A stretch of 64,000 bases of DNA, taken from an uncultured Lachnospiraceae bacterium (lineage in GTDB: Bacteria; Bacillota; Clostridia; Christensenellales; UBA1242). The translations under genes were made by a program, and so were the position numbers. Location: NCBI GenBank assembly GCA_964653635.1, contig CAZZGZ010000003.1, positions 8,438 to 72,437 on the forward strand, given 5' to 3'. The notes under the pieces were generated by a model. The model saw only the letters and a list, made by a program, of their open reading frames with translations, made no database searches and was not told where the DNA came from. Below, one piece after another: positions 21,524-46,483 of this stretch (position 1 is the stretch's first letter; every line of letters starts with the position of its first letter).

Positions 21524-21597
21524 TGGCAGGGGTGGAAGGAATCGAACCCTCCTCTAAAGTTTTGGAGACTCTCATTCTACCGATGAACTACACCCCT
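21524..21597 (-). tRNA. trnW: tRNA-Trp (anticodon CCA), with encoded CCA end
   Basis: The reverse complement folds as a cloverleaf. The acceptor is AGGGGTG/CACCCCT, the anticodon stem AGAGT/ACTTT carries a CTCCAAA loop, and the T-loop is TTCGATT. It ends with discriminator G and CCA. Confidence 0.9.
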
Positions 21598-21938: not shown

Positions 21939-22207
21939 GTCAGACATAAGTGGGGAGTTTGCAGTGCCCTGTGACTCGCAATCTGCAATAGCGAGGCTGA
22001 CCACCTATCTAGGTGTATGTAAGTTGAATATGAACGTATGTGCAAAACGTTGAAATTAAGGTCTTATGCAACTTTCGCCCCCGAACCATGTCAGGTCTTG
22101 ACGGAAGCAGCATTAAAGGGATACGTGGGTGTGCCATAAGGTAGCTTTGATGGAGTTTTGCTTATGCGAGGCAGTCGGTTTATGTGCAACAAAATAGGCT
22201 GTCTGAC
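21939..22207 (+). ncRNA. ffs: Signal recognition particle RNA, long Bacillus-type (scRNA) with Alu domain
   Basis: The Alu-domain string GGGGAGTTTGCAGTGCCCTGTGACTCGCAATCTGCAATAGCGAGGCTGA and the helix-8 string GAACCATGTCAGGTCTTGACGGAAGCAGCATTAAAGG closely match the recalled B. subtilis scRNA. The 5' GTCAGACA pairs with the 3' TGTCTGAC. Confidence 0.85.
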
Positions 22208-29742: not shown

Positions 29743-30936
29743 ATGAGTAATAGTTATCTACAGAAACGTGACCTAAAAAATCTTCAAAGAGTGGCACAAT
29801 ATTTAGAGAATTTGCCCCCATACTGCACTGATTTCATGATCGCTATGGAAACACAGAGCAGTACTTTAACACGTCTAAACTATGCCATGGACCTTTGTAT
29901 ATTTTTTGATTACCTTGAAAAATATGTTGTAAAAAAGCCTGCAAAAACTATACTTCTTGTTGACCTTGATAACCTTTTAGCACGTGACATTGAAAATTAT
30001 CTTTCCTATCTTACGTATTTCGTTAAAGACGATAAAATTCACCAAAACAATGAAAGAGCAAAGGCTAGAAAGTTAGCTAGCATTAGAAGTTTTTTCAAAT
30101 TCTTATTTGCCAGAGACTTACTTTCAAAAAATGTTATCGATAAAGTCGCTACGCCTAAAATACACGACAAAGCAATAATCAGACTTGAAGAAAACGAACA
30201 AGACCAACTTCTAGGTTGTATAGAAAATCCTGCAAATTTTTCAGATCGGCAAATTGCTTACAACAAAAATACATTAGAACGTGATCTTGCCATTGTCACT
30301 CTATTTTTGGGTACTGGAATTAGAATTTCAGAACTTGTTGGACTAAATATTGAAGATTTCAATTTAAAGCAAAATGAATTTAAAGTGACTAGAAAGGGTG
30401 GCAATGAGGCAGTTTTATATTATAATGATGAGGTAAAAGATGCGTTAAAACTCTATCTTAAAAAACGTGAAAAACTCCCCATAGATCGTAACGAAAAAGC
30501 CATGTTTATCTCTTTGCAAAATAAAAGAATTAGCGTTAGAGCAGTAGAAAAACTCGTTCAAAAATTTGCAAAACAAGCAAGCCCCTTAAAAAATATTTCC
30601 CCTCACAAACTCAGGTCGACATTTGGTACAAACTTGTACCGCTCCACGAAGGATATTTATATTGTAGCAGATATTCTTGGTCATAAAGATGTAAATACCA
30701 CAAAAAAACATTATGCAGCAATTAGCGAAGATTTAAGAAAGAATGCAAAAGATATGGTACACATTTATAGTCAAGAACACGAAAAATTAAATAATTTTAG
30801 TGATATTTCTCAAAAAAACGAAAAAAATGATGATTTTTCCAATAAAAATGATAAAATAAATGAAAATAATAATGATACAAATTTATCAAAGCCTACTTAT
30901 TCATCTTTTGATGATAATGACCTATTTGATTACTAG
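29743..30936 (+). CDS. Tyrosine recombinase, XerS/XerC-like, with an Asn/Asp-rich C-terminal tail
   Basis: Catalytic-domain motifs LFLGTGIRISEL (Arg), HKLRSTFGTNLY (His-x-x-Arg), and LGHKDVNTTKKHY (His...Tyr). The N-terminal LPPYCTDFMIAMETQSSTLTRLNYAMDLCIFFDYL resembles XerS. The last ~60 aa are low complexity. Confidence 0.8.
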   Translation: MSNSYLQKRDLKNLQRVAQYLENLPPYCTDFMIAMETQSSTLTRLNYAMDLCIFFDYLEKYVVKKPAKTILLVDLDNLLARDIENYLSYLTYFVKDDKIHQNNERAKARKLASIRSFFKFLFARDLLSKNVIDKVATPKIHDKAIIRLEENEQDQLLGCIENPANFSDRQIAYNKNTLERDLAIVTLFLGTGIRISELVGLNIEDFNLKQNEFKVTRKGGNEAVLYYNDEVKDALKLYLKKREKLPIDRNEKAMFISLQNKRISVRAVEKLVQKFAKQASPLKNISPHKLRSTFGTNLYRSTKDIYIVADILGHKDVNTTKKHYAAISEDLRKNAKDMVHIYSQEHEKLNNFSDISQKNEKNDDFSNKNDKINENNNDTNLSKPTYSSFDDNDLFDY

Positions 30937-31751: not shown

Positions 31752-33431
31752 TTAGATTACTGTGAGGTAATCGTAAGCATATTCCCCAGATGAAGTTTCA
31801 TATGTTGGAGTTTTTCCAGTTGGACCAACCACCGAACAACCATTGAACATCAAATTATAACTATATCCTTCTTCACCATTATACATTATCCAGCCAGTTT
31901 GCGTCTCTTCGTCAAATTCAGACACATAAATTGTCTGCATGCTAGAACACAATCCAAACATATACTCCATATTAGTGACGTTTATTGTGTTAAATGAGGT
32001 CAAATCCAACTCTGTAAGCAAGCTACAATTATAGAACATATAACTCATATCTGTTACATTTGAAGTGTCAAAACGAGACAAATCAATGTCTGTTAATACA
32101 GGACAATTCCAAAACATATATTCCATGTTTGTTACATTTGAGGTATCCCAGCCATCGCCAAGAATTATTTGTTTAAGCTTGCTACATTCTGCAAACATAC
32201 CACCACGTATGCTCCAATATAAATTCCCCATTCTAAGACAACTTGACGTATTAAAATAGGTCAAGTCTATAACCTCAAGAGAATAGCACCTTGAAAACAT
32301 ACCCGCCATATCAGTAACATTTTCACAAGTGAAGTCTTTATCAAAAGTGACACTCATCAAGTTCTTGCACTCTCTAAACATCCTATGTGTGGATAAAAGA
32401 CTTGCTGAGCTCCAACCTGTTAAATCTATATTTATAAAACCTGTATTTTGAAATATTCCATTTGATGTGTTGCCTGAACCTAAATACGTACCAAAATATT
32501 TAACTTTGGAAGTGTTAAACAAAGCTAGATCAATTCCGTTCTCGTTAAGACTTGTGCAATTTGCAAACATCCCAGACATATCTGTGACGTTAGATGTGTC
32601 CCATTCACTGCCAAGAATAATAGATGTTAAATTAGAACAACCATAAAACATTGCAGACATACTAGTTACATTTGAGGTATTGAAACTTGACAAATCTATA
32701 CTTGTTAAATTAGAACATACGGAAAACATCCCAAATTCAACCCAAGATTGCGTCCCCATATTTGTTACTTTTGATGTGTTAAAAGAAGTCATATTAAGGC
32801 TAGTAAGAGCTGTGCAGTTAGAAAACATTCCAACCATATTTGTAACATTAGATGTATCAAAATTTGTCCACTTAGTAAAATCTAGTGAAGTCAGTTTTTT
32901 ACAACTGGCAAACATATACCTCATATTCGTAACATTGTGAGTGTCAAAATTAGATAAATCTATACTTTCCAAAGAAGAAAGCCCACCAAACATCCCTTTG
33001 CAGGTGTATACACCTAAGATTTTCCCTGTATCCCCACCCATATTAGTAACATTAGATGTATCAAAGGTTGAAACATTAAGTGTTGTAAGTGAAATGCAAT
33101 TACCAAACATGGACTCCATATTGGTAACTTTTGAGGTGATAAAATTTGGAAATTTAGTAAAATCTAACGAAGTAAGAGTTTGACAAGAAAAGAACATCTC
33201 CCCCATGTTTGTTACATTTGACGTGTCAAAACTAGATAAATCTAAGGATGATAGCGAAGAACAACCTGTAAAGAGGTATGTCATGTTTGTTACGTTTGAC
33301 GTATTAAAACTAGATAAATCTAAAAATTCTAACATAGAACAAGAATAAAACATATAGCGCATACTGGTGACGTTTTCAGTGTCAAAGTTACTCAAATTTA
33401 AAGAAGTTAACATAGAACAACCATAAAACAT
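31752..33431 (-). CDS. DUF285 / 26-residue-repeat (BspA-family) surface-protein repeat ORF. It lacks a signal peptide and any non-repeat N-terminus, so it may be a gene fragment.
   Basis: About 20 copies of the 26-aa unit LDLSxFNTSNVTNMxxMFxGCSSLTS. The ORF begins inside a repeat (MFYGCSMLTSLNLSNFDTENVT). An in-frame TAA lies 6 codons upstream. Confidence 0.65.
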   Translation of the reverse strand: MFYGCSMLTSLNLSNFDTENVTSMRYMFYSCSMLEFLDLSSFNTSNVTNMTYLFTGCSSLSSLDLSSFDTSNVTNMGEMFFSCQTLTSLDFTKFPNFITSKVTNMESMFGNCISLTTLNVSTFDTSNVTNMGGDTGKILGVYTCKGMFGGLSSLESIDLSNFDTHNVTNMRYMFASCKKLTSLDFTKWTNFDTSNVTNMVGMFSNCTALTSLNMTSFNTSKVTNMGTQSWVEFGMFSVCSNLTSIDLSSFNTSNVTSMSAMFYGCSNLTSIILGSEWDTSNVTDMSGMFANCTSLNENGIDLALFNTSKVKYFGTYLGSGNTSNGIFQNTGFINIDLTGWSSASLLSTHRMFRECKNLMSVTFDKDFTCENVTDMAGMFSRCYSLEVIDLTYFNTSSCLRMGNLYWSIRGGMFAECSKLKQIILGDGWDTSNVTNMEYMFWNCPVLTDIDLSRFDTSNVTDMSYMFYNCSLLTELDLTSFNTINVTNMEYMFGLCSSMQTIYVSEFDEETQTGWIMYNGEEGYSYNLMFNGCSVVGPTGKTPTYETSSGEYAYDYLTVI

Positions 33432-33647: not shown

Positions 33648-36600
33648 CTATTCGGACATGTTACTGCTGTTATCCATAGTTTTCATCTTCTTTCTTCTTA
33701 TTATACCAGAAACAGCTAATATCACAATAATATCCGACAAAACTGCTATGAGTGTAATGTAAATCCATTTATTTCCGCCCTCGTCTTTAACTTTTGCGAC
33801 TACAAGAGTGATTTGACTACCACTTTCCAAGTTTATTTTGCCATTAGAAACATTGAGTTTGACCAATTCGCCATTTTGCAAAATGTAGAATGCGGTGTCG
33901 TCTTCATACTCTGAAACATCGAAAGATATGCTTAGTCCTTCCAGTTGTTGAGTTGTGCCATCGTCACTTTGCAAGGTTGCAACGATAACCTTTTCAATGT
34001 TTTTGATTTTGTTGTAATTTTCTCCCAGCGTTTCATAAATTTCAATACCATCTGTGATTTCTTGTACAACAAGTTGAACATCGTTAGCAAAACCATCTGT
34101 GTTTTCAAAAGTGAACTCCCCTTGAGTAATCGTTCTTCTCAAAACTTCCAAAGAGCATTCATATGTTCTTTCTGTAGCAGTGTTGGTGTATGAAATTATC
34201 AAATCTTGTTGTAATGACAAAGTTTCCCCATCTGCAACATTTGTAGAAAAGTTGATAATGTCTTCGGTGTCCCCATTGTTATAAATTGCTTTAACGGAAA
34301 TTGTACTAATATTAAATGCGTTGCCATCGACAAGATTTTCTGAACTTGTCGCCTCAATCCTATCAATTACAATGTTAATTCCCTCAATTGTGACTGAGCC
34401 TGTAATAGTGTTATAGTTGTTCCTGTCGGTTGGCGTGAAGATGTATGAATAGGAATTGCTCCCTGCGGTGATTTTGTTTGGAGTGAAAGTAAATTCTCCT
34501 TCAGTATCCCCACTTGCAAGTGTAATCGAAACGCTCGTTCCAACAAATGCAGATAAATCTTCGCCTATTGTCAAAATTGGATCTGCTTTTGTGATTGTGA
34601 ATTCTTTTGTTATTGAGCCAATTATATTCTCGTTATTTGAAGAAACTGTCATTGTAGCTGTACCTGCGTTTAAGTTGTCTACATAAGTCACTATATAATT
34701 TGCAACCTCAATTTCCACTTCATCCATTGAAAGAGAAATTTCTTGTGTCACATAATCGCCATAATTATAGGTTAAACTTTCCTCAAAACCCGAAATGGTT
34801 GCCTCTGACAAATCAATTTTGTTCACAACGAAAGTAATCGATTTTAAATCCTTAAAATTCCCTTGACCTGTGATTGTAATTGTCTTTTCTCCAGCATTTA
34901 AGCAGTCCTCTGAATATCCCACAATATAATCGACACCACTTGTCAGTTTTTTCTGTGTCTGTCCGTCTTCTTCGAAATATCCAAAAACATGAACCTCAAT
35001 TTCAGGGTTGATTTCATGACCTGAAAAGTAATATGAATTTTCAACGCCGGTGATAGTTGCATTGACAAGAGAAAGCCTTAAAATGTTGAATTGTGCATTA
35101 AAAGTCCCATAATAGTTGCCGTTCGCACAAGCGGTAACAACGACTGTTGCAACACCATAATCAATGTTGTTAGAATAGGTCGCCTCGTAGTCAGTCCCGC
35201 TTTCAAGTGTAATACTTCCATAAATTATAGTTAAATCTGGTTTGATTTCATATCCAGTGTAAGTTTGACTTGAAATTTCTGTAAGCATAGAATATTCCAA
35301 AGTTTTCTTAGCAATTTCAAAAGTTATATTTTTTTGAGAGTCTCCAACAAAATTTGAGGATTTTGCTGTTATCGTTAAAGTCCCCGTACCAGCATTTATG
35401 TTATTTGCATATGATACTGTGAAGTCAACACCATTTTCCAGTGTGATATAACCATATTTAACTGTAAATGAAGGTTGAATTTCACTACCGGTGTAGACGA
35501 TTTTGCTGTCTGTTATTGTCACAACGATGTCGCTATCTGCCAAAGATTTCGCCAATATCGAATAGGTTCTTTCCGTTGTCCCACTAAAGTTGTTTGTCCC
35601 CTTAATCGTGATTGTGATAGTTTGAACATCCACAAATGATGAAGTGGAATATGAGCAAACAAAATCATTTGAAGTTAAAACATAACTATTGAGTTTAATT
35701 TCAGGAGTTACAATATGACTTTGCCCGTCATATGTGATGTCGTCAATGGTGCTGATGCTTACACTCGTGTCATCTATATCTCGTGCGGAAATTGTGAATG
35801 AGCTACTCATAGTGCCAACATAATTTTCCTTAAACACAACAATAATGCGTGCTGTGTCCACACCTGCTGAGATGTTATTTTCATAGGACACATCATAATA
35901 ATCAGCAGAAAGTTCGCTTTCTGAGCCCACAAACTTCACGGTCACATTTGGTTTGATTGCACTGCCCGTGAAAATATACTCTCCACTTTCCACAACAATT
36001 TCAAAGGATGTTGTTGAGGCAACCGATTGAGAGATTTTGAAGGTTGTGGAAGTTTGCTCGCAGAAATTACCACATCCATTGATTATCACCGTTGCAGTGC
36101 CATAGTTTGTGTTATTTGAATAACTCAAAGTGAAAGGCGTTGTGGCATCAGTGTTTGTATATAAGATTGAATTGTAAACGATTATAACATTTGGTGTGAC
36201 TTCTCCGCCCGTGTATCCCTGTTCTGCAATTGGACGGATAGATATATCGCTGTCTGCAAGGGATTTTGGAGTAATGGTGAAGTTTTGAGTTATACTTCCA
36301 GTATAGTTTCCCTTCCCTGTGATTGTTATAGATGCGCCACTAGTCACAACCTCATTTTCATATGCAACATTGATATTGTTTAAATAACTGATATCAAAGT
36401 TGGCAGTACTGAGTGATACATTTCGTGTTTTGTCAACAATTTCAAACGACAAAGTGATTTCATTTCCAGTGTAAACAAAACTCAAATTATCAAAAGTCGT
36501 TGTAAAGCGTGTTGAATCGTCAATACTTGCAGGAGTGATTGAATATGAATATGTATTAATCGTTCCAGAAAAATTACCACATCCTGTGACTACTATATAA

Positions 36601-39600
36601 ATTGTTCCAACATTGATGAAATCTGTTGTGGCAACGTAATTTTCACCATCCAAACACTTGTATGCAATGGTAAAATCAGTGTTTTCAACCAAAGTTACTT
36701 CGCCAAGTGTGAGGATAGGAACAAGTTTGCGTTCAAGCCCGTTATAGACAACATCTGAAATTGTGCCTTTTGTAACTGTATCACTTGTTATAGTTAGAGG
36801 TGTTATTTTGAAACTTCGTGACACCGTTCCAGTGTAATTGCCAGTTCCAGTGATTGTCACATATGCCCCTGCAATAACCTCTCCGTCTGAATAGGTGACA
36901 TTTATATTGTTTAAATAGGTTGTCGAAAATGACGAAATTGAGGTTTCCCCGTCTTTGATGGTGATAGTTGTAGTGATTTCACTTCCAGTGTAGACGAATT
37001 CAGTTTGTGCAAGTGAAATTTCAAAGCGTGAAGTGTCGGAGATATCCGCTGTGACAATTTGATAAACAAAACTCAAATCATCGGCAAAATTTCCAAGTCC
37101 AGACACTGTGATAGTCACCGTTCCAACATTTATCCTATCACTTGAATATGAAACGCTGTAATCCGTGTTTTCGATTAAAGATGTGCTGTTGAATGTTAAA
37201 GTTATGCTCTTTGAGGTGATGGAACCTGTGTATGTTTCATCGGTGAGAACATATTTTCCACCAGACAGGGTCCCATTTTTAGTGATGGTTGACGAGGTAA
37301 GTGAAAGCGGAGTAATACTATATTCGATGGAAGTCGTGTTTTTAAAATTCCCTATGCCAGTAATTACAATCCTTATTCTGCCAACATTGACAAAATCTGA
37401 AGTTTCGTTGTAGTCACTTCCCTCATAACGCTGATATTGTATCGTGTAATCACTGCTAAGGACAAGCCCCAACCCATTAAACGAAAGATTTACATCTTGC
37501 TTTCTTGAACTTGCGTTGTAAACTAAATCTGCAAGGGTAACAACACTTGCCTCACTGATATCTCTTTGTTCAATCGTGAATGTTGCAGTTACTGTGCCGG
37601 TATAATTGTTCACACCGGTTATTGTCACAAGTGCATTTTCGCCAGCATTTACGTTGTTTGAATATGTGATTGAGTATTCCAAATTAACAGTTAGCATCTT
37701 GCTATCCAAAACAACACTTAAAACGGCAGGAGTTTTTTCAGTTCCGTCATAGGTGAGGGTTGTGTCGTCCAAAGTCACAACTGCATCAGTTATTGGTGCA
37801 GGATTGATGGTGAAAATCAAGCTGACGACACTCGTGAAGTTATTTATACCTTTAAAGAAAACGTTTGCCTTTCCAGCGTCAGTGTTAGCATAGTAGCCAT
37901 CGGTTACCTCCAAAATATTGGTTGCTCCCGCCTCTTTTGCCTCTTCTTCTGAATCATATCCTATCTCATTGTCAAGGTCATAATAGCCTGTAAAAATTGC
38001 AAAATCAGTACCCCAGCTAAGAGTTTGATAGCCTGTGATTCCATCTTTGTCTGACATATAAATTTGCAAAGTTAAATCGCTTGAAGTAAGTTCGATTGCA
38101 CTGCCGGTGTAAGTTTTGTCAGTGATTGTATATTTCATCTCACTACCTATAAGCTCTCTTGCAACGACCTTATAGGTTTTAGTAACAACACCTGTGAAGT
38201 TTCCAGTTCCAGTTGTGGTCACAACATAATCTCCCACCTCGCTGAAAATTTCAAGAGAAAGTCCGTTGGCATTAGAAATACCAAAAGTGTAGTCAGTTGT
38301 TACAGTCAATTCAACTTTCTCGTTTGCATGATTTACAAAAGTGATGATTGGTTTCACGCTGTGCCCAACATAAGTTTGGTCGCCGTTATTAATTTCTTTT
38401 GAAATGGCATCATAATAATCAATCGTAAGGTCGTTGATGTTCACTGTGGAAATTGAGAAATTCACTGCAATTTCGCCATCTCCGTTCTTAAAGTTGGAGT
38501 TTTCCGTAGCGTTGATTTTCACGGTTATCGTTCCAGCAGAGGTGTAATCAGTTGTTTGCGAATTACCACGATAATACGAAACATCATACTCATTTACTCC
38601 TAGCACAAGTCCACCCTCTGCCAAAACTCTTGAAATAGTTGGCTGATGAGTGTTGCCGTCATAGGTTGCCGATATACTTACAAGGCTGACTGCCAAAATC
38701 TCCGCCTTATTAATGACAAATTTGCAAGTTGCAGTTCCTTCGAAATTGCCAGTGGCAGAAGAAATTGTGATTGTGATTGTTCCCGCATTGACAAGACTTG
38801 CAGAGTAGCCCACTCTGTATTCGTTTTCCAAAACAGTAAGCCCGCCTTTGCTTGTCACACTTGTGATTTTCACCTCATGTGCTTGTGCGTTGTATGTTGC
38901 AGAGTAACTTTCCAGCGTGACAGAAGAAATTGTGTCAGCAATAATGGTAAACTGCTCGCTTACTGTACCAGTGTAGTTGCCCTTTCCTGTCAAAGTCAAG
39001 GTTGCACTGCCAGCATTTATGTTATTTAGATATGAAACAGAATAATCGTCTGTGTCAAGTGTGTAGTTTAAATCCTCATCGGTTGCAGTGAAAGTTGGAG
39101 TTTTCTCTTTGCGGTCAAAAGTGTATGTTCCAGAAATTGTAAGTGTGACATTTGAGAGGTTTCTTGCTGTGATTTGATATGTAACCACCTTCAAGCCCGT
39201 ATAACTTCCCATACCGGTTATGGTCACAGACACAACGCCAACGTTAATCAAATCGTCTGAAAAGACAAGCGTGTAATCAGTGTTTTCAATCAAAGTTGTT
39301 CCACCCAAAACAACGGAAATTGTTGTCTTGTTTGTTTCGCCGTTATATACAACATCAGGAGCGTTGACAACAGCGGAAGCAAGTGTTTGTGAAGTGATGT
39401 TAAATGTTATTTCTTTTGTCCCTTGATAGTTTCCACTGCCGGTAATTGTCACACTGCCATTGCCAACAGAAATATTTTCGCCATAAGAAGTGATGGTGTA
39501 ATCCGTGCCACTTGTCAAAAGGGTTTTTACTGAATTGATATTGTCATAAACGGAAACACTAGGCTTGATTTGACTGCCAGTATACTCATAATCTGCAACT

Positions 39601-42600
39601 TCCACCGTGGTAAGAGAAATATCTTTCTTTAAAATGGTGAAAGTTTGTGTGAATGAGCCAGTGAAATTGCCAGTAAAGGTTATCAAAATCTTAGCAGAAT
39701 CGCTTGCGTTGACGTTGTCGGAGCAAGAATATGTGTAGTCCGTTCCGCTGACAAGTTCATTACCATTATAAGAAACTGTAAATGTTGGAATTTGTGACGT
39801 GCCGTCATAGGTGTGAGTTGAAGTCACCGAGGCCGTGGCAGAAGTGGAGATATCCAGTGCTTTGATTGTGATTGAGCCAGCAAGACTTCCAGAATAATTA
39901 TAACTGCTCCCGTTCTGCTTTGCATAAATTGAAACGCCAACAAAACCTGCATTGACAAAATCGGAAGGGGAATATGTGACGGAATAATCATCAGCTGAAA
40001 CGACTTTTCCGTTTGCGTCAAATACTTGAATGATAGGACTAATTGCCGTGCCAGAGTATTCAACTTCTAGTGCCGTGCCAGAATTTTCACCGATTGTGAT
40101 AGTAAATGATGAAAGTACGCCCGGTGAGATGACAAAGTTTTTAGAAATTGTGCCTTGATAGTTTCCAACGCCCGTCAAAACGATTGTGGCAGTGCCAGCA
40201 CTTGTGTTATTAGAATAGGTGCAAGTGTAACCCTCACTTTCCACAACGACTGAGCCATTTGAATAACTTGTCACCACACTTTGTATGGTCAAAGTTACCG
40301 CTTCCCCTGCATAGAAAATTTCCGTGCTTGCGTCACCTTCATAAGTGATACTCCCGCCGGTGATATCAAGTTTTGAAATTGTGAAGATTTTTGTTGCCGT
40401 GCCGGTGTAACTTCCACAGCCCGTTATAACAAGATAATATGTCCCTGCATCACGAAGTGAAGTCACAACATCTCCACTTGTCGAGCCTAAGTACCAAGCA
40501 TATGTAAAATCGGTGGTCTGTTCAAGGGTTCTACCCTCAACAGAAACAGAAAATGTTGGAGTTTGCTCCTCTTTGTTGTAAATAGTGGCACTTGACGACA
40601 TAGTAATGCTGTCAGCCGTGATTGTACCTTTGTTAATTGAGAAAGTTGCTGATTTAGATGAAGTGTAGTTTCCAATACCCGTCAAAATCACATAATATGT
40701 GCCTACTTCAGTTGGATTTGTCACAACTTCGCCGTCAGCGGTTGAGAAGTGATATGTAAGAGTATAATCTTTACCCTCTGTCAAAGTTGTACCACCAGCA
40801 ACCATTGTCACTGTTGGAATGTTTTCCTCACCATTGTACACAAACGAAGTGTCACTTAGAGTCAGTGTTCCACTTGACAAACTTATAGGTGCGATATAGA
40901 AAGTTGTGGACCTTGTGCCAGTGTAGTTTCCAAGCCCAGTGATAGTCAGTGTGGCAGTGCCAGCATTTGTGTTCTCTGAGAATAGATATGTGTAATCCGT
41001 CCCTGTCAAAGTCGTCTTACTTGCCCCGGTGTCCGTCACAGTGAATGATGGTGTGATTGCACTTCCGGTGTAACTTTGGTCAGCGATGTTTGAAATTGAG
41101 ATGGTTTCACCTGTAATATCCCTCTGTGTAATCGTGAAAGTAGACGTTGCAGAGCCATAATAACATCCCATACCGGCGATTGTAATTGTCACTGTTGAAC
41201 CAGCAGCTGTGTTAGATGAGAAAGCAAGTGTATAATCTGTATTCTCGGTCAAAGTCAAATCTGTGTCAACATCTTTCACGGTCACATCGACTATAAAAGT
41301 ACTTCCCGTCCACTGCACACTGCTCACGTGGGCAAATTCGAAATGGTCGGCGGTGATTTCCTTGATTATTCTAAATTCAAAAGATAGTGTACTATAATAA
41401 TCTCCATCACCAGTTATTGTCACACTTACAATGCCAACTGAAACGTTATCACCTATTTTTGTGATTGTGTAATCAGTGCCCTCGGTTAAAACGTAGTTTC
41501 CAAAGACGATTACTGGGCTAACTTCTTCACCTGTCCAATCCACATCTTCAAAAACTAGATCCACACTTTCCAAATCACGTTCATCAGCATCTTCCACTGC
41601 TGCATTTAAATTGAGATGAAGTGCAGGACGTACTGCGTAGGCAATATTTACATTACTTGAAGTGTAAGATGCGCCACCTAAATCCAAATAATAAGTTGTG
41701 CTTGCACTGTTATAAACTGCTGAGCGGAGCCATGAAGAATATGTGACATTTGACCTTTGCGACGTGGAAGTCCCCCAAAGTCCAACATAAGAGGAGCTGT
41801 ACCCAGTTTCTGCCACACTTGGAAGCCAAAGATAATCATTTGCCCATGTGTCACTTCCGAGAATACTTGCATAGTTGTAAGTTGAAGAATAAAATCCTGT
41901 ATCTGCCATACTAGTGGAGTAGGCATCATTAGAATAGTTGTATGTGGTGTTTTGAATGGTCTTAGAACTTTGTGTTTCCTGCCATGAAATCTTGCTAGGA
42001 GTGACAAGATATTTTGTCAAACTGCCTGCAATGTCCGTCATAGTGAATTTTGCAAACTCATTTGTCTCTGATTGAGTTGCTGTTAAAGTTTCAGTGTTAG
42101 AAGTTGCATACTCTCCACCCCCATTCAAAGTCACTGCACGAATATACGAGGTGCCATACATGTTAGATGGATATGTCACACCTGTTGAAGTGGAATACCA
42201 TCCACTTGACCAAGTTGAAGTGGAAGTGCTATTTGCAAGCCAAAGGGTGAGAATATCGTTGCCGTCAGAGTCCTTTGAAAGATACATCACCTGCCAAACA
42301 AGTCCGCCAAAGGTCACCAAAATATCGTTGTCAGAGGTCTTTCCCGCATAATCATTTTCCCTTATACCTGTCGCATTTAGGGTGCTTTCTGCCAAAGTGG
42401 AAATTGCACTCATATTGTCAACTGTCACAGTGGAATCATTAGAGATGACTTTTAAAAGTTTGCTTAAATTTGCCTTGTCAAATTTGTTTTGAGAGCTTAG
42501 ATATATATCGCCCACCGTGGTGATTGTGTAAAGAATTCTTACCGTGCCGGAGTAGTTTCCCGTGCCTTTTACCACAACATAATATACCCCTGCGTCCGAT

Positions 42601-43079
42601 GGTGTCGATATCGTGCTTTTGCTAGTGTTTTCATAGTGGTCAAAAACATAATCCTGCCCTTTGACTAGGGTTGTGCCATTTGCTTTTAAAACAAAACTTG
42701 GAGTAATCGCTGTGCCTGTGTACTCAAAATAATTTTGACTTGTGGTCAAGGTATATTTAGAAATATCACTTGTTATTGAAAAATATGCCGTTTTACTTCC
42801 CGTGTAACCACTTCCCTCTACTGCCGTGATCGTCACACTTGCTGTGCCGATATCCGTGTTGTCAGAATATTCAATGGTGTAATCGGTTCCAAGGGTGAGG
42901 ACTGCGTCGTCATATTTCACAACGACATTTGGAAGTATTTCACTCCCTGTATACAATTGCTCCTCAATCCCAACTGATGCAAACGACAAGTTTTTCTCAG
43001 TGTCCGAGTCGCCAGAGGCGACAGATTTTGCCGCACTAAGTGCGGCAGAGTTTAGATTGAGGTGAAGCGCAGGACGCAC
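33648..43079 (-). CDS. Giant (3143 aa as called) surface adhesin-like protein. From N- to C-terminus it has two Ig-like modules, a DUF6273/C-type-lectin-like WLRS...VRPAL domain, about 28 further Ig-like modules, and a C-terminal TM anchor. Its 5' end is contiguous with the DGR template repeat.
   Basis: The module consensus is YTG..I.P.V.....L..GTDYT..YSNN.N.GTA.VTITG.GNY.GT. The C-terminal helix is WIYITLIAVLSDIIVILAVSGII, followed by RRKK. The called GTG start at 43079 lies inside the TR. There is no signal peptide, and the first ATG codon is residue 223. The true start is uncertain. Confidence 0.75.
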   Translation of the reverse strand: MRPALHLNLNSAALSAAKSVASGDSDTEKNLSFASVGIEEQLYTGSEILPNVVVKYDDAVLTLGTDYTIEYSDNTDIGTASVTITAVEGSGYTGSKTAYFSITSDISKYTLTTSQNYFEYTGTAITPSFVLKANGTTLVKGQDYVFDHYENTSKSTISTPSDAGVYYVVVKGTGNYSGTVRILYTITTVGDIYLSSQNKFDKANLSKLLKVISNDSTVTVDNMSAISTLAESTLNATGIRENDYAGKTSDNDILVTFGGLVWQVMYLSKDSDGNDILTLWLANSTSTSTWSSGWYSTSTGVTYPSNMYGTSYIRAVTLNGGGEYATSNTETLTATQSETNEFAKFTMTDIAGSLTKYLVTPSKISWQETQSSKTIQNTTYNYSNDAYSTSMADTGFYSSTYNYASILGSDTWANDYLWLPSVAETGYSSSYVGLWGTSTSQRSNVTYSSWLRSAVYNSASTTYYLDLGGASYTSSNVNIAYAVRPALHLNLNAAVEDADERDLESVDLVFEDVDWTGEEVSPVIVFGNYVLTEGTDYTITKIGDNVSVGIVSVTITGDGDYYSTLSFEFRIIKEITADHFEFAHVSSVQWTGSTFIVDVTVKDVDTDLTLTENTDYTLAFSSNTAAGSTVTITIAGMGCYYGSATSTFTITQRDITGETISISNIADQSYTGSAITPSFTVTDTGASKTTLTGTDYTYLFSENTNAGTATLTITGLGNYTGTRSTTFYIAPISLSSGTLTLSDTSFVYNGEENIPTVTMVAGGTTLTEGKDYTLTYHFSTADGEVVTNPTEVGTYYVILTGIGNYTSSKSATFSINKGTITADSITMSSSATIYNKEEQTPTFSVSVEGRTLEQTTDFTYAWYLGSTSGDVVTSLRDAGTYYLVITGCGSYTGTATKIFTISKLDITGGSITYEGDASTEIFYAGEAVTLTIQSVVTSYSNGSVVVESEGYTCTYSNNTSAGTATIVLTGVGNYQGTISKNFVISPGVLSSFTITIGENSGTALEVEYSGTAISPIIQVFDANGKVVSADDYSVTYSPSDFVNAGFVGVSIYAKQNGSSYNYSGSLAGSITIKALDISTSATASVTSTHTYDGTSQIPTFTVSYNGNELVSGTDYTYSCSDNVNASDSAKILITFTGNFTGSFTQTFTILKKDISLTTVEVADYEYTGSQIKPSVSVYDNINSVKTLLTSGTDYTITSYGENISVGNGSVTITGSGNYQGTKEITFNITSQTLASAVVNAPDVVYNGETNKTTISVVLGGTTLIENTDYTLVFSDDLINVGVVSVTITGMGSYTGLKVVTYQITARNLSNVTLTISGTYTFDRKEKTPTFTATDEDLNYTLDTDDYSVSYLNNINAGSATLTLTGKGNYTGTVSEQFTIIADTISSVTLESYSATYNAQAHEVKITSVTSKGGLTVLENEYRVGYSASLVNAGTITITISSATGNFEGTATCKFVINKAEILAVSLVSISATYDGNTHQPTISRVLAEGGLVLGVNEYDVSYYRGNSQTTDYTSAGTITVKINATENSNFKNGDGEIAVNFSISTVNINDLTIDYYDAISKEINNGDQTYVGHSVKPIITFVNHANEKVELTVTTDYTFGISNANGLSLEIFSEVGDYVVTTTGTGNFTGVVTKTYKVVARELIGSEMKYTITDKTYTGSAIELTSSDLTLQIYMSDKDGITGYQTLSWGTDFAIFTGYYDLDNEIGYDSEEEAKEAGATNILEVTDGYYANTDAGKANVFFKGINNFTSVVSLIFTINPAPITDAVVTLDDTTLTYDGTEKTPAVLSVVLDSKMLTVNLEYSITYSNNVNAGENALVTITGVNNYTGTVTATFTIEQRDISEASVVTLADLVYNASSRKQDVNLSFNGLGLVLSSDYTIQYQRYEGSDYNETSDFVNVGRIRIVITGIGNFKNTTSIEYSITPLSLTSSTITKNGTLSGGKYVLTDETYTGSITSKSITLTFNSTSLIENTDYSVSYSSDRINVGTVTITVSGLGNFADDLSFVYQIVTADISDTSRFEISLAQTEFVYTGSEITTTITIKDGETSISSFSTTYLNNINVTYSDGEVIAGAYVTITGTGNYTGTVSRSFKITPLTITSDTVTKGTISDVVYNGLERKLVPILTLGEVTLVENTDFTIAYKCLDGENYVATTDFINVGTIYIVVTGCGNFSGTINTYSYSITPASIDDSTRFTTTFDNLSFVYTGNEITLSFEIVDKTRNVSLSTANFDISYLNNINVAYENEVVTSGASITITGKGNYTGSITQNFTITPKSLADSDISIRPIAEQGYTGGEVTPNVIIVYNSILYTNTDATTPFTLSYSNNTNYGTATVIINGCGNFCEQTSTTFKISQSVASTTSFEIVVESGEYIFTGSAIKPNVTVKFVGSESELSADYYDVSYENNISAGVDTARIIVVFKENYVGTMSSSFTISARDIDDTSVSISTIDDITYDGQSHIVTPEIKLNSYVLTSNDFVCSYSTSSFVDVQTITITIKGTNNFSGTTERTYSILAKSLADSDIVVTITDSKIVYTGSEIQPSFTVKYGYITLENGVDFTVSYANNINAGTGTLTITAKSSNFVGDSQKNITFEIAKKTLEYSMLTEISSQTYTGYEIKPDLTIIYGSITLESGTDYEATYSNNIDYGVATVVVTACANGNYYGTFNAQFNILRLSLVNATITGVENSYYFSGHEINPEIEVHVFGYFEEDGQTQKKLTSGVDYIVGYSEDCLNAGEKTITITGQGNFKDLKSITFVVNKIDLSEATISGFEESLTYNYGDYVTQEISLSMDEVEIEVANYIVTYVDNLNAGTATMTVSSNNENIIGSITKEFTITKADPILTIGEDLSAFVGTSVSITLASGDTEGEFTFTPNKITAGSNSYSYIFTPTDRNNYNTITGSVTIEGINIVIDRIEATSSENLVDGNAFNISTISVKAIYNNGDTEDIINFSTNVADGETLSLQQDLIISYTNTATERTYECSLEVLRRTITQGEFTFENTDGFANDVQLVVQEITDGIEIYETLGENYNKIKNIEKVIVATLQSDDGTTQQLEGLSISFDVSEYEDDTAFYILQNGELVKLNVSNGKINLESGSQITLVVAKVKDEGGNKWIYITLIAVLSDIIVILAVSGIIRRKKMKTMDNSSNMSE
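34700..41600 (-). repeat. Tandem array of about 28 divergent ~85-95-aa Ig-like coding modules (approximate bounds)
   Basis: The G(T/V/K)DY(T/S)..Y..N...G.A and ITG.GNY.G signatures recur through the translated ORF. Confidence 0.7.
41604..41732 (-). repeat. VR-like segment homologous to the DGR template repeat (residues W450-N492 of the giant ORF); not a clean cognate VR
   Basis: It aligns without gaps to 43050..43178, codon for codon over 43 codons. 12 of the 15 TR Asn codons in the 25-codon variable core are replaced (V,Y,S,S,T,Y,D,Y,T,S,S,I). However, 33 of the 49 nucleotide mismatches are not at TR adenines. Confidence 0.6.
41604..42332 (-). other. DUF6273 / DUF1566-like (C-type-lectin-fold-like) domain whose C-terminal strands carry the VR-like segment
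   Basis: FGGLVWQVMYL...ILTLWLAN...DYLWLPSVAE...SWLRSA...YAVRPALHLNL. This pattern matches the W.vL / FLLS.xE / WWLRS / GVRPAL layout I recall for that family. Confidence 0.5.
43030..43046 (-). other. GC-rich hairpin 3 nt downstream of the TR
   Basis: GCCGCAC-TTA-GTGCGGC on the coding strand: a 7-bp perfect stem (6 G:C pairs) with a 3-nt loop, extendable by an A:T pair. It is not followed by a T run. It stands out in an AT-rich genome. Confidence 0.6.
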
Positions 43080-43178
43080 GGCGTAGGAATTATTGACATT
43101 ATTATTGTTGTTACTTGAGCCGGAAGGGTTGAGATTATAACTATTATTGTAGTTATTGTTGTTGGCGGAGCGCAGCCA
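43050..43178 (-). repeat. DGR template repeat (TR), 129 nt
   Basis: Conceptual translation: WLRSANNNNYNNSYNLNPSGSSNNNNNVNNSYAVRPALHLNLN. 15 of the 25 core codons are AAC or AAT. It lies 112 nt downstream of avd and is homologous to 41604..41732. Confidence 0.8.
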
Positions 43179-43216
43179 AGGACCCTCGCATTGATAAAAA
43201 GTCTTTATCCACTCCT

Positions 43217-43246
43217 ATCTTAACACAAAGGTCATACTTTTTGCAA
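43217..43246 (-). promoter_or_regulatory. Possible promoter in the avd-TR spacer, followed by an AGGAG with no usable start codon
   Basis: On the minus strand: TTGCAA (43246-43241), an 18-nt spacer, then TAAGAT (43222-43217). AGGAG follows at 43216-43212, overlapping the in-frame TAG at 43217-43215. Confidence 0.3.
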
Positions 43247-43290
43247 CAAAATTTATCCCTACATATTTAATTTTATAGTATGTACTTAAT

Positions 43291-43725
43291 TTATTTTGCT
43301 TCCATCTGTTTTTTCGTGCTTCTTGCCCATCCCATCAAAAGTCTTCTGCATTCTTCGATTTGTGTAGCCATGACTGTCATTTGATGTAAGTTTATAGCCT
43401 GCATTTTCTTCGCCGTTTCAGCATAAAAATTGAGAAGACTGAGATTGACCGCCACTTTCTTTTGATATTCTAGTCGCATTTCGTTTCTCTCAAAATTTGC
43501 ACGATATAAATCTTCAATTATTTGTGTGGAACAATTTTGCAATCTTGCCACTATGCTCCATCTCAGTTTTTTTGGCGACTTTTCCGTGATAATAAAGATG
43601 TATTCGCTCAACTTTTTTGCATGAGTGAACACTGCAAGTTCTCTGTCACCCGTCATCGGTACTGCAACCTTAAAAGGCTTTCTTGCCACCTTGTTAGCGT
43701 CTATTTGTTTTTCTTCCATAATCAT
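43291..43725 (-). CDS. avd: DGR accessory variability determinant (Avd-like four-helix-bundle protein), 144 aa
   Basis: The ATG at 43725 overlaps the RT stop (ATGA). The sequence is helical: FTHAKKLSEYIFIITEKSPKKLRWSIVARLQNCSTQIIEDLYRAN...LLMGWARSTKK. This fits the recalled Avd / 23S-IVS four-helix-bundle family pattern. The track's 5' extension to 43842 lies inside the RT gene. Confidence 0.8.
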   Translation of the reverse strand: MIMEEKQIDANKVARKPFKVAVPMTGDRELAVFTHAKKLSEYIFIITEKSPKKLRWSIVARLQNCSTQIIEDLYRANFERNEMRLEYQKKVAVNLSLLNFYAETAKKMQAINLHQMTVMATQIEECRRLLMGWARSTKKQMEAK

Positions 43726-44915
43726 TCTCCTTTTTGTTTTTCCGTTTTGTTTAACGGCTTTAAAATCTCTTTTAATGGCTCTTGCAACTCTCTTTCCAAC
43801 TTGAAACAATTTGCGTGTTTCAAATGTCCATGAAATGCACAAAGTGATGCTTTTACTCTCTCTTTATCAATCGTACCATCTGCATACGCCCTTTTTAAAA
43901 GTCTTACCCGCCATCGCATCCTTTTCTTTGTCTTTTTTGCAACCTGCTTGATAAGTTTCCCACTCGGTGTTATATAGTAGCGAAATCCCAAGTATTTTAC
44001 CCCGTTTCGAAGGGGAAAAATTTGCGTTTTGGAGTTTAATTCTAGTCCAAGTTCGCTTACTTTTTTCTTAATCTCATCATATGCCCTCTCAATCACCGCT
44101 TTGTCTTTATCGATGAGTATAAAATCGTCCATATACCTTGAATATATCTTGATTTTAAGTTTTTCTTTTATAAAACAATCCAAACTATCCAAATAAAACA
44201 TCCCAAAAATTTGGCTCGTCTGATTGCCTATCGGAATACCTCTGCCAGTGCTGACAATTTTTTCATGTTGATTTTTCTTAGACTCACTTTTTGAATTTTG
44301 ATTAATTATAATCACATCATTGTTTTTATTTTCAGTCAAGGGTTTTATGTTGTTTTTTGCTAGATATTCTGGATTTGTATGATAACTGTCAATCACGTCC
44401 TCAATGAGTGTCCTTATATCCTTATCCTTTATGTGTTTGCAAATCACTTTTTTAAGTTTTTCATGCGGAATACTTGCAAAATATTTTTTTATGTCACATT
44501 TAAGCACCCATACGTCATCACCATTTTGTCGTATGTAAGTTCGTAGCATTTTTTCAAAACGAGCAAGGGCAAAATGCAGGCCTTTGCCTTTTTGACATAC
44601 ACAATTATCAAGTATCACCTTTTTTGTAAAATATGGTGCTAGAATGTCGTCACACAAAATATGTTGGACAATCCTGACATTATAATCTAGTGTTTGGATT
44701 TCCCGTTTCTTTGGCTCAAAAACTACAAAACTATGATACCTTCTTATCTTGAATTCCCGCTGTTTCAACTCCAAAAACAACTTTCTCAAATTTTCAAGCA
44801 TATTAAATTCAAATTTAACTATCGGTTTTTTATCCCTCTTGGCAAGTCTTGCCCTTAGGTGTGCTTTATAAATGTTTTCAAAAGAAAAAACATCGTCATA
44901 TTTGCAATCAATCAC
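43722..44915 (-). CDS. DGR-type reverse transcriptase
   Basis: RT motifs in order: FEPKKREIQ, ILDNCVCQKGKG, LKCDIKKYFASI, GIPIGNQTSQIFGMFYL (the DGR hallmark [ILV]GxxxSQ), and YSRYMDDFILI (YMDD). GTG start. An Asn/Lys-rich insertion precedes motif 4. Confidence 0.9.
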   Translation of the reverse strand: MIDCKYDDVFSFENIYKAHLRARLAKRDKKPIVKFEFNMLENLRKLFLELKQREFKIRRYHSFVVFEPKKREIQTLDYNVRIVQHILCDDILAPYFTKKVILDNCVCQKGKGLHFALARFEKMLRTYIRQNGDDVWVLKCDIKKYFASIPHEKLKKVICKHIKDKDIRTLIEDVIDSYHTNPEYLAKNNIKPLTENKNNDVIIINQNSKSESKKNQHEKIVSTGRGIPIGNQTSQIFGMFYLDSLDCFIKEKLKIKIYSRYMDDFILIDKDKAVIERAYDEIKKKVSELGLELNSKTQIFPLRNGVKYLGFRYYITPSGKLIKQVAKKTKKRMRWRVRLLKRAYADGTIDKERVKASLCAFHGHLKHANCFKLERELQEPLKEILKPLNKTEKQKGE

Positions 44916-45114
44916 AAAAATTTTTTACTCCATTACAATTTTAACATAAAACATATAAAATCAAAAATTTTTTAAATTCTTGACGTAAAAATGCGTATTT
45001 ACAATTAAAAACTTACAATTTTCAATTTAAAATCATGATATGTGCTTGTCTGAAAACAAGGGCAATTTGGTAGAAAACTAAATTTAGTAATGTTTTTAAA
45101 TTTGACAAATTCAC

Positions 45115-45140
45115 AAAAAAAGACTCCTATATAAGAGTCC
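45115..45140 (-). terminator. Weak intrinsic terminator after ORF 45160..45549
   Basis: On the minus strand: GGACTC-TTATATAG-GAGTCT (6 bp including one G:U pair), followed by TTTTTTT. Confidence 0.4.
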
Positions 45141-45159
45141 TTAAATTATTATACTAGAC

Positions 45160-45549
45160 TTAAAAGTCTTGAGTTTTTTCATTTAAAAATTCTGCCTCGA
45201 TAGCTTCTGCTCTATCAACAATGTCCCTAAGTTGCAAATGACTTACGGTCGATTTAGAAATATTGAATACATTTACTGGATAATAATACTGAGCAAAATC
45301 TGTCAATGAATATATCCTAAAATCATCTGTCCCTAAAAAATTACGTATTGGATTGCGTAAATCACCGCTTACATCCAAAATTATCTGTTCTGGATAGAGG
45401 ATTTTTATTTTCTCTTTGTTATTGTTGTATATGTATGGATAAACTCTCCCTCGCATCCTATCAATTATCCAAAAAATTTTGTAAATACTATAATTCATTT
45501 CATCTCCTTGTATGTAGCCTATTATATCAAAGCTTGTTTTATTTGTCAA
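45160..45549 (-). CDS. Hypothetical protein (129 aa)
   Basis: An ORF between ftsY and the DGR RT. No recognisable motif. Confidence 0.45.
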   Translation of the reverse strand: MTNKTSFDIIGYIQGDEMNYSIYKIFWIIDRMRGRVYPYIYNNNKEKIKILYPEQIILDVSGDLRNPIRNFLGTDDFRIYSLTDFAQYYYPVNVFNISKSTVSHLQLRDIVDRAEAIEAEFLNEKTQDF

Positions 45550-45583
45550 GGATAAAAAATAACAATTTCAAAACTTTATGCCA

Positions 45584-46483
45584 TTATTCAAACAACCCAT
45601 CCACAAAATCTGTGGCTGAAAATAGCTCTAAATCTTCCTCTTGCTCCCCAACACCTATAAACACAACGGGCTTGTTATACTCTTTCTCTATGGAAATAAT
45701 CACTCCCCCTTTTGCCGTTCCATCAAGTTTTGTCAATATGATACCATCTATGTTTACTGCACTATCAAATGCGGAAATCTGATTGAGTGCATTTTGACCT
45801 GTGGTTGCATCTAGCACAATGAAAGTGTAGTGATGAGCTTCTTTATATTCACGATGTGAAATCTTCTCTATCTTTTTAAGTTCTTCCATTAAATTAGTCT
45901 TTGTGTGCAATCTTCCTGCAGTGTCCACAATCAAAACGTCAGTCCCTTTGGCTTTGGCACTTGAAATACCATCAAACACAACAGAGGCAGAATCTGCCCC
46001 TTCTTCATGCTTGATAATGCGGGATTTTGTACGCTTTGCCCATTCAGCTAACTGATTTGAAGCTGCTGCACGAAAGGTATCACCTGCAACAAGTGTCACG
46101 CTTTTGCCTTTATCCTTGAAAAATCTTGCAAGCTTGCCAATAGTGGTAGTCTTGCCAACACCATTTACTCCAACAATGGTGATAATAGCTGGATACTCTA
46201 TTTCTACTTTTGGAGCATTTTCAAGCATTTCTGTTAGTACCTTTTTTAGTGCTAACTTGACATCATTTGAAGTTCGCAGTTTTTCCTTATGTGCCTGTGT
46301 GCGTAAACTCTCTACTATTTCAAAACTGACTTGGCCACCTATATCAGAAGAAATCAGTATCTCTTCAAGTTCCTCATAAAATTCGTCATTTAATTCACCA
46401 TGACTTAGTAGCGAATCTATCTTTCTACTAAAACTATCCTTTGTCTTTTTTAGTGCCTCTTTAAATTTTTTAAATAATCCCAT
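45584..46483 (-). CDS. ftsY: Signal recognition particle receptor FtsY (short form, NG domain only)
   Basis: GVNGVGKTTTIGKLA, LVAGDTFRAAA, LIVDTAGRLH, and TKLDGTAKGG. Confidence 0.95.
   Translation of the reverse strand: MGLFKKFKEALKKTKDSFSRKIDSLLSHGELNDEFYEELEEILISSDIGGQVSFEIVESLRTQAHKEKLRTSNDVKLALKKVLTEMLENAPKVEIEYPAIITIVGVNGVGKTTTIGKLARFFKDKGKSVTLVAGDTFRAAASNQLAEWAKRTKSRIIKHEEGADSASVVFDGISSAKAKGTDVLIVDTAGRLHTKTNLMEELKKIEKISHREYKEAHHYTFIVLDATTGQNALNQISAFDSAVNIDGIILTKLDGTAKGGVIISIEKEYNKPVVFIGVGEQEEDLELFSATDFVDGLFE

Follow-up and report, generated by a model that had tools for sequence, protein, structure and literature searches.

A probable hybrid of template and variable repeats at the start of a giant reading frame in an uncultured Lachnospiraceae bacterium

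A 64-kb stretch of DNA from an uncultured Lachnospiraceae bacterium (contig CAZZGZ010000003.1, hereafter the window) contains a diversity-generating retroelement (DGR) and, next to it, an open reading frame (ORF) for a giant protein of 3143 aa. The template repeat (TR) of the retroelement runs without a stop codon into this ORF. An earlier note on this DNA had considered that the gene is either truncated at the 5' end and silent, or is expressed from an unconventional start inside or next to the TR. The question raised by the locus is whether a TR is translated here as part of a protein, or whether the continuity of the frame has another cause.

The 5' flank and body of the repeat are of the TR type, the 3' flank is of the variable repeat (VR) type, the RNA element that follows the TR in relatives is absent, and homologues of the giant gene are intact. 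For these reasons, segment 43178-43029 is probably a TR/VR hybrid, in which the TR has been joined to the end of its cognate VR (VR1) and the interval that usually separates the two, 1.3-2.4 kb in length, is missing. The 5' flank and adenine-rich body would belong to a DGR template repeat, and from about 43088-43062 on the sequence would be that of the VR side, with the 3' end of VR1, then the flank with the hairpin, and then the coding sequence after VR1. In the target gene downstream, VR1 would have formed the end of a first DUF6273 module. The join would have removed the RNA element of ~135 nt, presumably the cDNA-priming region, together with the intergenic region, the ribosome-binding site and start codon of the target and, from the protein itself, the signal peptide and some 300 aa belonging to the first DUF6273 module. 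Because the homology of TR and VR is in register, such a join preserves the frame automatically, and the TR appears to be fused in frame.

The retroelement and the open frame

Every feature of the locus lies on the minus strand. The gene of the reverse transcriptase (RT) of the DGR type (43722-44915; 397 aa, GTG start) was identified by a match to Pfam RVT_1 (E 5e-19). Membership of the RT in the DGR clade was judged from Pfam and homology. An RT scan of species-representative genomes yielded 22 related loci (L001-L022) with 50-55% RT identity, all from metagenome-assembled genomes (MAGs) of uncultured Clostridia or Christensenella-like bacteria, for example L002 (JAFLVM010000003.1) and L009 (CASLXJ010000001.1). 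These closest RTs adjoin Avd and, where seen, adenine-specific TR/VR pairs. The accessory protein Avd of the window (43291-43719; 142 aa; Pfam bAvd PF22296, E 7e-11) is encoded next to the RT and is 54-65% identical to the Avd proteins of relatives, in all 22 of which Avd is located downstream of the RT on the same strand.

A non-coding spacer of 112 nt (43179-43290) separates the Avd stop codon from the TR and represents a TR-type 5' flank; spacing in relatives is similar, e.g., ~100 nt in L002. Its translation, EWIKTFYQCEGP, is unrelated to DUF6273. The TR body itself (43062-43178, WLRSA...YAVRPALH) translates as WLRSANNNNYNNSYNLNPSGSSNNNNNVNNSYAVRPALH, corresponds in Pfam to positions 132-171 of the 172 positions of DUF6273 and resembles the TRs of relatives, the motif of which is WLRS[AG]NNNN...AVRPALH. 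The repeat is rich in AAY (Asn) codons, which form runs, and adenines make up 37 of the 120 nt compared. Thus, an adenine-rich TR adjoins the RT and Avd genes, as is typical for a DGR.

The frame is open from 43214 to the stop codon at 33650-33648, over 3189 codons, and passes straight through the TR; residues 13-55 of the frame read WLRSANNNNYNNSYNLNPSGSSNNNNNVNNSYAVRPALHLNLN. The spacer contains both the TAG that opens the frame (43217-43215) and the sequence AGGAG (43216-43212), and no in-frame ATG, GTG or TTG was found between this AGGAG and 43079. The GTG at 43077-43079, taken as the start of the 3143-aa product, lies inside the TR, where it encodes Val of YAVRPAL, and has no ribosome-binding site. 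The first in-frame ATG (42411-42413) is residue 223 counted from GTG 43079; it is located inside the second DUF6273 module and has neither a ribosome-binding site nor a signal peptide. Further candidate starts are TTG 42989 and TTG 42956, the latter preceded at 3 nt by GAGGAG. No hydrophobic N-terminal segment was detected, all 15-residue windows of the first 520 residues scoring at most 1.73 on the Kyte-Doolittle scale. The only membrane-like segment is C-terminal (frame residues ~3150-3173), so that nothing hydrophobic stands before the first DUF6273 sequence, where the family has a signal peptide or anchor. Translation and the hydrophobicity profile therefore agree with what the earlier note had described: the frame that opens after the TAG, the start called within YAVRPAL, the late first ATG, the AGGAG without a usable start in range, and a protein with a C-terminal membrane anchor and no signal peptide. 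An alternative genetic code was rejected as an explanation of the frame, since the frame-opening stop is TAG and not TGA.

The giant ORF contains two stretches of DUF6273 (PF19789, E 1.5e-9). The TR is followed by a linker and two MBG/Ig-like modules (42519-43028), which normally stand after a first DUF6273 module and are collinear with residues 385-465 of P0258, a homologue described below. Then come the second DUF6273 module (41604-42518), with 35-45% identity to the DUF6273 modules of relatives, and the rest of the ORF (33648-41603), with about 30 MBG-like repeats, a C-terminal membrane helix (33767-33696) and the terminal sequence RRKKMK. The modules after the TR show weak matches to Pfam MBG_3; as had been proposed, they are akin to the modules that follow the second copy of the repeat, of which they are paralogues with 30-40% identity (BLASTP E 2e-17). 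According to Pfam, MBG_3 and alignments with P0258 and other proteins, the ORF belongs to a family in which DUF6273, ending in WLRS...AVRPALHLNL, is followed by MBG/Ig-like repeats; its fold would be of the lectin type.

A HMMER search of 1.84 billion representatives revealed many giant homologues, among which proteins with several DUF6273 modules are common. In most of them, window residues ~231-540 (the second DUF6273 module) align to residues ~45-380, directly behind a hydrophobic N-terminus. Of 23 motif-bearing homologues, 18 exceed the N-terminal hydrophobicity cut-off, and only the window protein and the fragmentary P0316 are clearly non-hydrophobic. The target genes of the related DGR loci have their own start with a ribosome-binding site, a Lys-rich N-terminus and a hydrophobic signal, followed by (V)GDIW/EIY (as in ...YVKVGDIW..NNLNKL...), a DUF6273 module ending in the VR, LHLNLNSAA and MBG repeats. 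The target of L002 has the same kind of C-terminal membrane anchor as the window ORF. The view that the present gene is truncated at the 5' end was thereby upheld: homologues have a signal peptide and about 300 aa of DUF6273 at the place where the window has Avd and the TR.

These data bear on a functional fusion, in which the giant protein would be translated from GTG 43079 or from TTG 42989/42956 and reach the surface independently of a signal peptide, with the TR serving as template and coding sequence at once. The length of the open frame, the GAGGAG before TTG 42956 and the C-terminal anchor agree with such a protein, but none of the candidate starts has both a ribosome-binding site at a suitable distance and a hydrophobic N-terminus, in contrast to the prevailing state of the motif-bearing homologues. 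Moreover, a fusion of TR and ORF occurs in no relative: the frame of the recognised TRs closes 5-82 codons after AVRPALH, and an N-rich repeat running into a long ORF was found in none of 80 loci of the genome collection, the longest open frame there being 48 codons. With the RNA element and the cognate VR missing, nothing would be left to diversify. Functional fusion is therefore very improbable, and expression from an unconventional start did not find support.

Flanks of the repeat and the RNA element

Relatives provide a reference for both kinds of 3' flank, since their TR and VR are identical up to CTTCAC and then diverge. The TR continues with TC, a small covarying hairpin and TTTCCCGAATTTGAC...CGAACAG...GAGATGAAGGGGCTT..GTCCTGCC (the end is also written GATGAAGGGGCTT, and the whole pattern as CTTCAC-TC-hairpin-TTTCCCG...GATGAAGGGG). 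The VR continues with CTCAATCTAAACTCTGCCGC-loop-GCGGC, encoding LNLNSAA. In the window, the repeat continues as CTCAATCTAAACTCTGCCGCACTTAGTGCGGCA, which begins with CTCAATCTAAACTCTGCCGC; the flank next to the TR body at 43061 is written as CTCAATCTAAAC or CTCAATCTAAACTCTGCCGCAC. This VR-type 3' flank, CTCAATCTAAACTC, together with an 8-bp GC-rich hairpin, TGCCGCAC-TTA-GTGCGGCA, occupies positions 43029-43061. The first 20 nt of the flank match the VR flank of L009b at all 20 positions and those of six others at 16-18 (seven of eight relatives), while the match to the TR flanks of relatives is 1-8 of 20.

The hairpin (43047-43029) has a DNA folding energy of -9.7 kcal/mol (z -7.3) and is located 15 nt past the end of homology, as in the VRs of relatives. 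GC-rich inverted repeats 4-34 bp downstream of the VR represent the target-recognition element for retrohoming (Guo et al., PMC3240598), and the window hairpin fits such a VR target hairpin because its spacing lies within the reported range. Thus, the target-recognition end, which in a DGR stands after the VR and not the TR, is found here directly 3' of the TR body. The crossover would lie within a 27-nt stretch shared by TR and VR, TCCTACGCCGTGCGTCCTGCGCTTCAC (43062-43088), between the last intact AAY codon (43091-43089) and the point at which TR and VR of relatives diverge.

A second feature of the 3' side is the absence of a conserved RNA element. The 135 nt after the TRs of 14 relatives were aligned, covarying stems were found, and a covariance model, R1, was built. 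With this model, 19 of the 22 loci reach 43-114 bits, six of them having had no part in its construction, and L007 reaches 22-24 bits. Accordingly, an RNA element of ~135 nt is present directly 3' of the TR in 20 of the 22 relatives (for example, L003:11811-11944, L022:11845-11979 and L009:11994-11860 on the minus strand), with a covarying hairpin immediately following CTTCAC. Rfam 15 contains no family to which this element could be assigned, and no Rfam family matches anything in the RT-Avd-TR locus of the window. Over the whole window (both strands, filters off), the best hit of R1 had 12.7 bits and covered only 14 nt common to TR and VR. In phage BPP-1, the spacer immediately downstream of the TR serves to prime cDNA synthesis (PMC5703328). 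The ~135-nt element is probably the counterpart of that spacer, and by this analogy the TR RNA of the window would lack its priming region.

Tandem copies of the TR with its RNA element, two to four in number, were observed in many relatives, namely, L003 (11700-12750), L004, L005, L008, L010, L011, L013, L014, L015 and L020. Three TR paralogues of L003 differ at non-adenine sites, and only TRb fits the local VR (6% non-adenine mismatch vs 18% for TRc). This suggests either several TRs for different targets or frequent duplication.

The segment that the earlier note had called VR-like is the C-terminal end of the second DUF6273 module (41604-41732). The two copies are indeed unrelated upstream of WLRSA, as had been stated, and similar downstream through ...HLNLN, with 84% identity over 51 nt (BLAST, E 1e-10). 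Aligned in register (offset 1446 nt), they differ at 16 of the 37 adenines, but also at 31 of the 83 non-adenine positions (37%), and many of the latter differences are synonymous third-position changes (GTC/GTA, GCC/GCA, GTG/GTA, GCG/GCA, CAC/CAT, CTA/TTA). Segment 41732-41604 was rejected as the cognate VR on these grounds. The TR and this segment are, on this comparison, old paralogous coding sequences rather than donor and recipient, because non-adenine mismatch is only 0-8% in six of seven cognate-candidate TR/VR pairs of relatives. The flank of the second module matches VR flanks at 10-14 of 20 positions and has no significant hairpin (z -0.7). No other VR or TR was found in the window, on either strand, by BLAST with word size 7 and an adenine-tolerant offset scan, so the window contains no cognate VR differing from the TR only at adenines.

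The arrangement that may have preceded the join is represented by P0258, a homologue of 3545 aa with a signal peptide, a DUF6273 module, MBG, a second DUF6273 module and MBG repeats. Window residues 13-132, comprising the TR, LHLNLNSAALSAA, the linker and the first MBG module, show 47% identity to P0258 residues 348-463, and window residues 163-539 align with P0258 residues 417-841. As judged from these alignments, the window frame is collinear with a P0258-type protein from the last ~40 residues of the first module on, and an equivalent of the first ~347 residues is absent. The non-Asn residues of the window TR (YNLNPSGSS) match the VR of the first P0258 module (YNLSPSGSS), and not the type of the second module.

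The same observations concern the origin of the TR, for which the earlier note had proposed that it arose from, or recombined with, the C-terminal end of a lectin-fold module. The second part of this proposal stands: recombination with the C-terminal end of a DUF6273 module is indicated by the TR-type 5' side, the VR-type 3' side and the hairpin. The first part does not, since all 22 relatives keep a separate RT-Avd-TR unit, with its own conserved 3' RNA element. An origin in situ would mean that the present arrangement is ancestral, a first lectin module of the gene having decayed and its tail having become the TR. Every TR must in the end go back to a VR-like sequence, and the 3' flank of the window repeat still looks like coding sequence; however, the RT-Avd-TR order with TR-specific flanks and the RNA element is common to 20 of the 22 relatives, which makes a separate TR the ancestral state. 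Besides, a flank identical at 20 of 20 positions to the functional VR flank of another species, with the hairpin kept, argues for a recent target-end function and not for an old relic. It is very improbable that the TR originated in this way.

Origin of the join

Several points weigh against a hybrid of TR and VR1. In the genome, metagenome and protein collections searched, the source genome has no close relative, and the state before the join is reconstructed from distant relatives and not observed. In the collections searched, no orthologous locus was found, the best RT having 55% (genomes) or 54% (metagenomes) identity and the best protein (DUF6273) 47%; the adenine-masked TR pattern had no matches in metagenome contigs. 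The comparison with related loci that the earlier note had called for thus found the signal peptide, DUF6273 and MBG modules in relatives and in P0258, and no ortholog. The element is weak or displaced in L007, so its absence is strong, not absolute, evidence of loss, and the need for it in cDNA priming is extrapolated from Bordetella phage BPP-1 (PMC5703328). Finally, the 9.4-kb ORF, the RT and Avd are all intact, and a real deletion would have to be recent.

If the segment is a hybrid, the join goes back either to an event in the cell, namely, recombination or slippage between the direct repeats, or to the collapse of a repeat during assembly, and our preference leans slightly to collapse. 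All explanations other than these two, taken together, are unlikely.

Assembly collapse has a chance not far below even. The real genome would then contain a separate TR with the RNA element and an intact VR1 gene, and the assembler would have threaded through the shared stretch and dropped a loop of ~2 kb; a hypervariable VR1 in the sampled population, with variant k-mers pruned, could have aided this. The contig, 114,375 bp long in the NCBI assembly, is metagenome-derived, and all its protein clusters are singletons, which is typical of a MAG. Eleven window proteins, including RT, Avd, a 2076-aa protein and the 1197-aa SMC, are present both in NCBI and in Logan, an independent assembly of public reads, whereas the 3143-aa product is present in NCBI only, and 16 alternative start and contig-edge forms of it are absent from the collection. 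Since the window contains no repeated 21-mer able to break a k=31 assembly, and Logan does contain giant proteins of the family (P0258, on L163), such an assembly would be expected to reproduce the 3143-aa product unless k-mers outside are shared or the region is polymorphic. The likelihood ratio for collapse or heterogeneity from this discrepancy is estimated at roughly 3. All ORFs and the TR adenines are intact, as expected if nothing was broken.

On the other hand, the perfectly shared stretch of TR and VR is probably only about 27-45 nt long, which is less than the k with which common assemblers finish; at a branch point, a contig is usually broken and not wrongly joined; and no collapse of this kind is seen in any of the 22 related loci from MAGs. 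The discrepancy with Logan may also sit anywhere in 9.4 kb, the chance of an unrelated break being roughly 0.2-0.3. A Logan version of the giant protein was recovered neither by a mid-gene search nor by the search of representatives, which gave only distant proteins or the NCBI entry itself; the word-indexed search lists proteins of at most 1400 aa, so that longer versions would escape it, and a 9-mer scan of all fetched proteins revealed only conserved motifs. No encoding contigs of RT and Avd are on record in the exact look-ups, both proteins being present in the cluster table. An error of assembly at 43080-43220, which the earlier note had named as a finding that would overturn its own, is mildly favoured by the exact look-ups.

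Deletion in the cell can be advanced only tentatively. In this case, recombination, replication slippage or aberrant retrohoming between TR and VR1 would have killed the DGR and decapitated its target gene, a recent natural self-destruction of both. In relatives of this gene order (L002, L003, L006, L011), TR and VR are direct repeats about 1.8-2.4 kb apart, a classical substrate of deletions; the crossover coincides with the longest stretch that does not vary; the tandem arrays of TR and RNA element show that the region rearranges often; and loss of a giant surface protein can be neutral or favoured. However, such a deletion must be very recent, as neither a stop codon nor a frameshift is present in the AT-rich 9.4-kb ORF, the RT or Avd. 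The hybrid has a VR-type target end beside the TR body, yet every adenine is unmutated, and an origin by retrohoming should leave adenine substitutions, of which none is evident. The absence of the product from the Logan assembly also speaks against a real junction.

The window element is a DGR of a known general type, broken or mis-assembled, without a cognate VR, with a target end on the TR and without the 3' element of the TR. As written, it would be unable to prime cDNA and would have no VR to rewrite, and the 3143-aa protein would not be exportable. The DGR and the giant surface-protein gene look disabled, both of them, or else the assembly is collapsed; the arrangement would be a dead end and not a mechanism for translation of a TR. 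In-frame continuity of a TR with an ORF beside a DGR should be regarded as a TR/VR join, to be checked by the type of 3' flank, and should not be taken as evidence of TR translation or of an unconventional start. If the join is real, a TR body with a VR-type homing end would be donor and recipient at once, and the locus would be a clean example of self-inactivation of an RT-Avd-TR-target DGR via its own repeats, a route of decay for DGRs whose target is located downstream of the TR and oriented alike. If it is an artefact, DGR loci in MAGs can collapse silently, with removal of the true VR and the target N-terminus, which would bias surveys of "orphan" DGRs and of target architectures. As a by-product of the analysis, model R1 can be used to recognise the conserved and as yet uncurated RNA element that follows the TR in this clade of RTs.

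The genes surrounding the locus are as follows. The housekeeping genes plsX, rnc, smc and ftsY are located directly upstream of the RT. Between ftsY and the RT, a perfect promoter of the sigma-70 type (TTGACA-17-TATAAT, with an upstream TG) was found at 45549-45521 on the minus strand, followed by a small unannotated ORF (ATG 45497) and, after it, a strong terminator-like hairpin (45142-45119, minus strand). A scan of 42300-45600 for promoters and terminators revealed none between Avd and the giant ORF, with counts at shuffle level. Downstream of the giant ORF, a BspA-type leucine-rich-repeat (LRR) protein with DUF285 is encoded directly (31752-33431, minus strand), as well as a tyrosine integrase with Phage_integrase and SAM-like N domains (29743-30936, plus strand); the block from RT to integrase may be an island inserted beside ftsY. 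Insertion of a circular DGR element into the target gene was rejected, as ftsY-smc-rnc-plsX stand directly upstream of the RT and there is no reciprocal junction. A second giant surface protein of 2076 aa (14752-20982, minus strand) contains a subtilase domain (Peptidase_S8) and BspA-type LRR repeats, without a DUF6273 match and without similarity to the TR. The only matches in the window above the Rfam gathering threshold are the bacterial large signal recognition particle RNA (21941-22201, plus strand) and a tRNA (21527-21597, minus strand).

Comparison with known systems

The 22 related loci share with the window the order RT-Avd-TR, the type of TR and the family of target, with DUF6273 and a C-terminal VR, LNLNSAA, a GC hairpin and MBG repeats. 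They differ in that the frame of the TR closes early, the RNA element of ~135 nt follows, the target is a separate gene with a signal peptide, and the TR/VR pair is adenine-specific. The window, in turn, lacks the RNA element, the gene start, the signal peptide and the cognate VR.

P0258 resembles the window protein in the VR1-type motif, LHLNLNSA, the linker, MBG and the second DUF6273 module, aligned at 35-47% identity, and differs from it by the presence of a signal peptide and a complete first DUF6273 module. Its sequence occurs identically on seven contigs (ENA, Logan; L161-L163), with no RT within 6 kb on either side. P0258 may be a target on which a DGR acts in trans, or else diversification of this family member may have ceased.

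The experimental prototype of these systems is the DGR of phage BPP-1 (mtd-VR, avd, TR, spacer, brt). Its list of parts is the same: RT and Avd, a TR rich in adenines, and a lectin-type fold that carries the VR at its C-terminal end. The gene order differs from that of the window, with the target upstream and the RT downstream of the TR. In BPP-1, the region 3' of the TR primes cDNA synthesis (PMC5703328), and homing requires a GC-rich inverted repeat located downstream of the VR (PMC3240598). The loop of this hairpin is GRNA (4 nt) in BPP-1 and TTA (3 nt) in the window, where the VR-type hairpin stands directly behind the TR body, a position that the rules of BPP-1 assign to the recipient and not to the donor.

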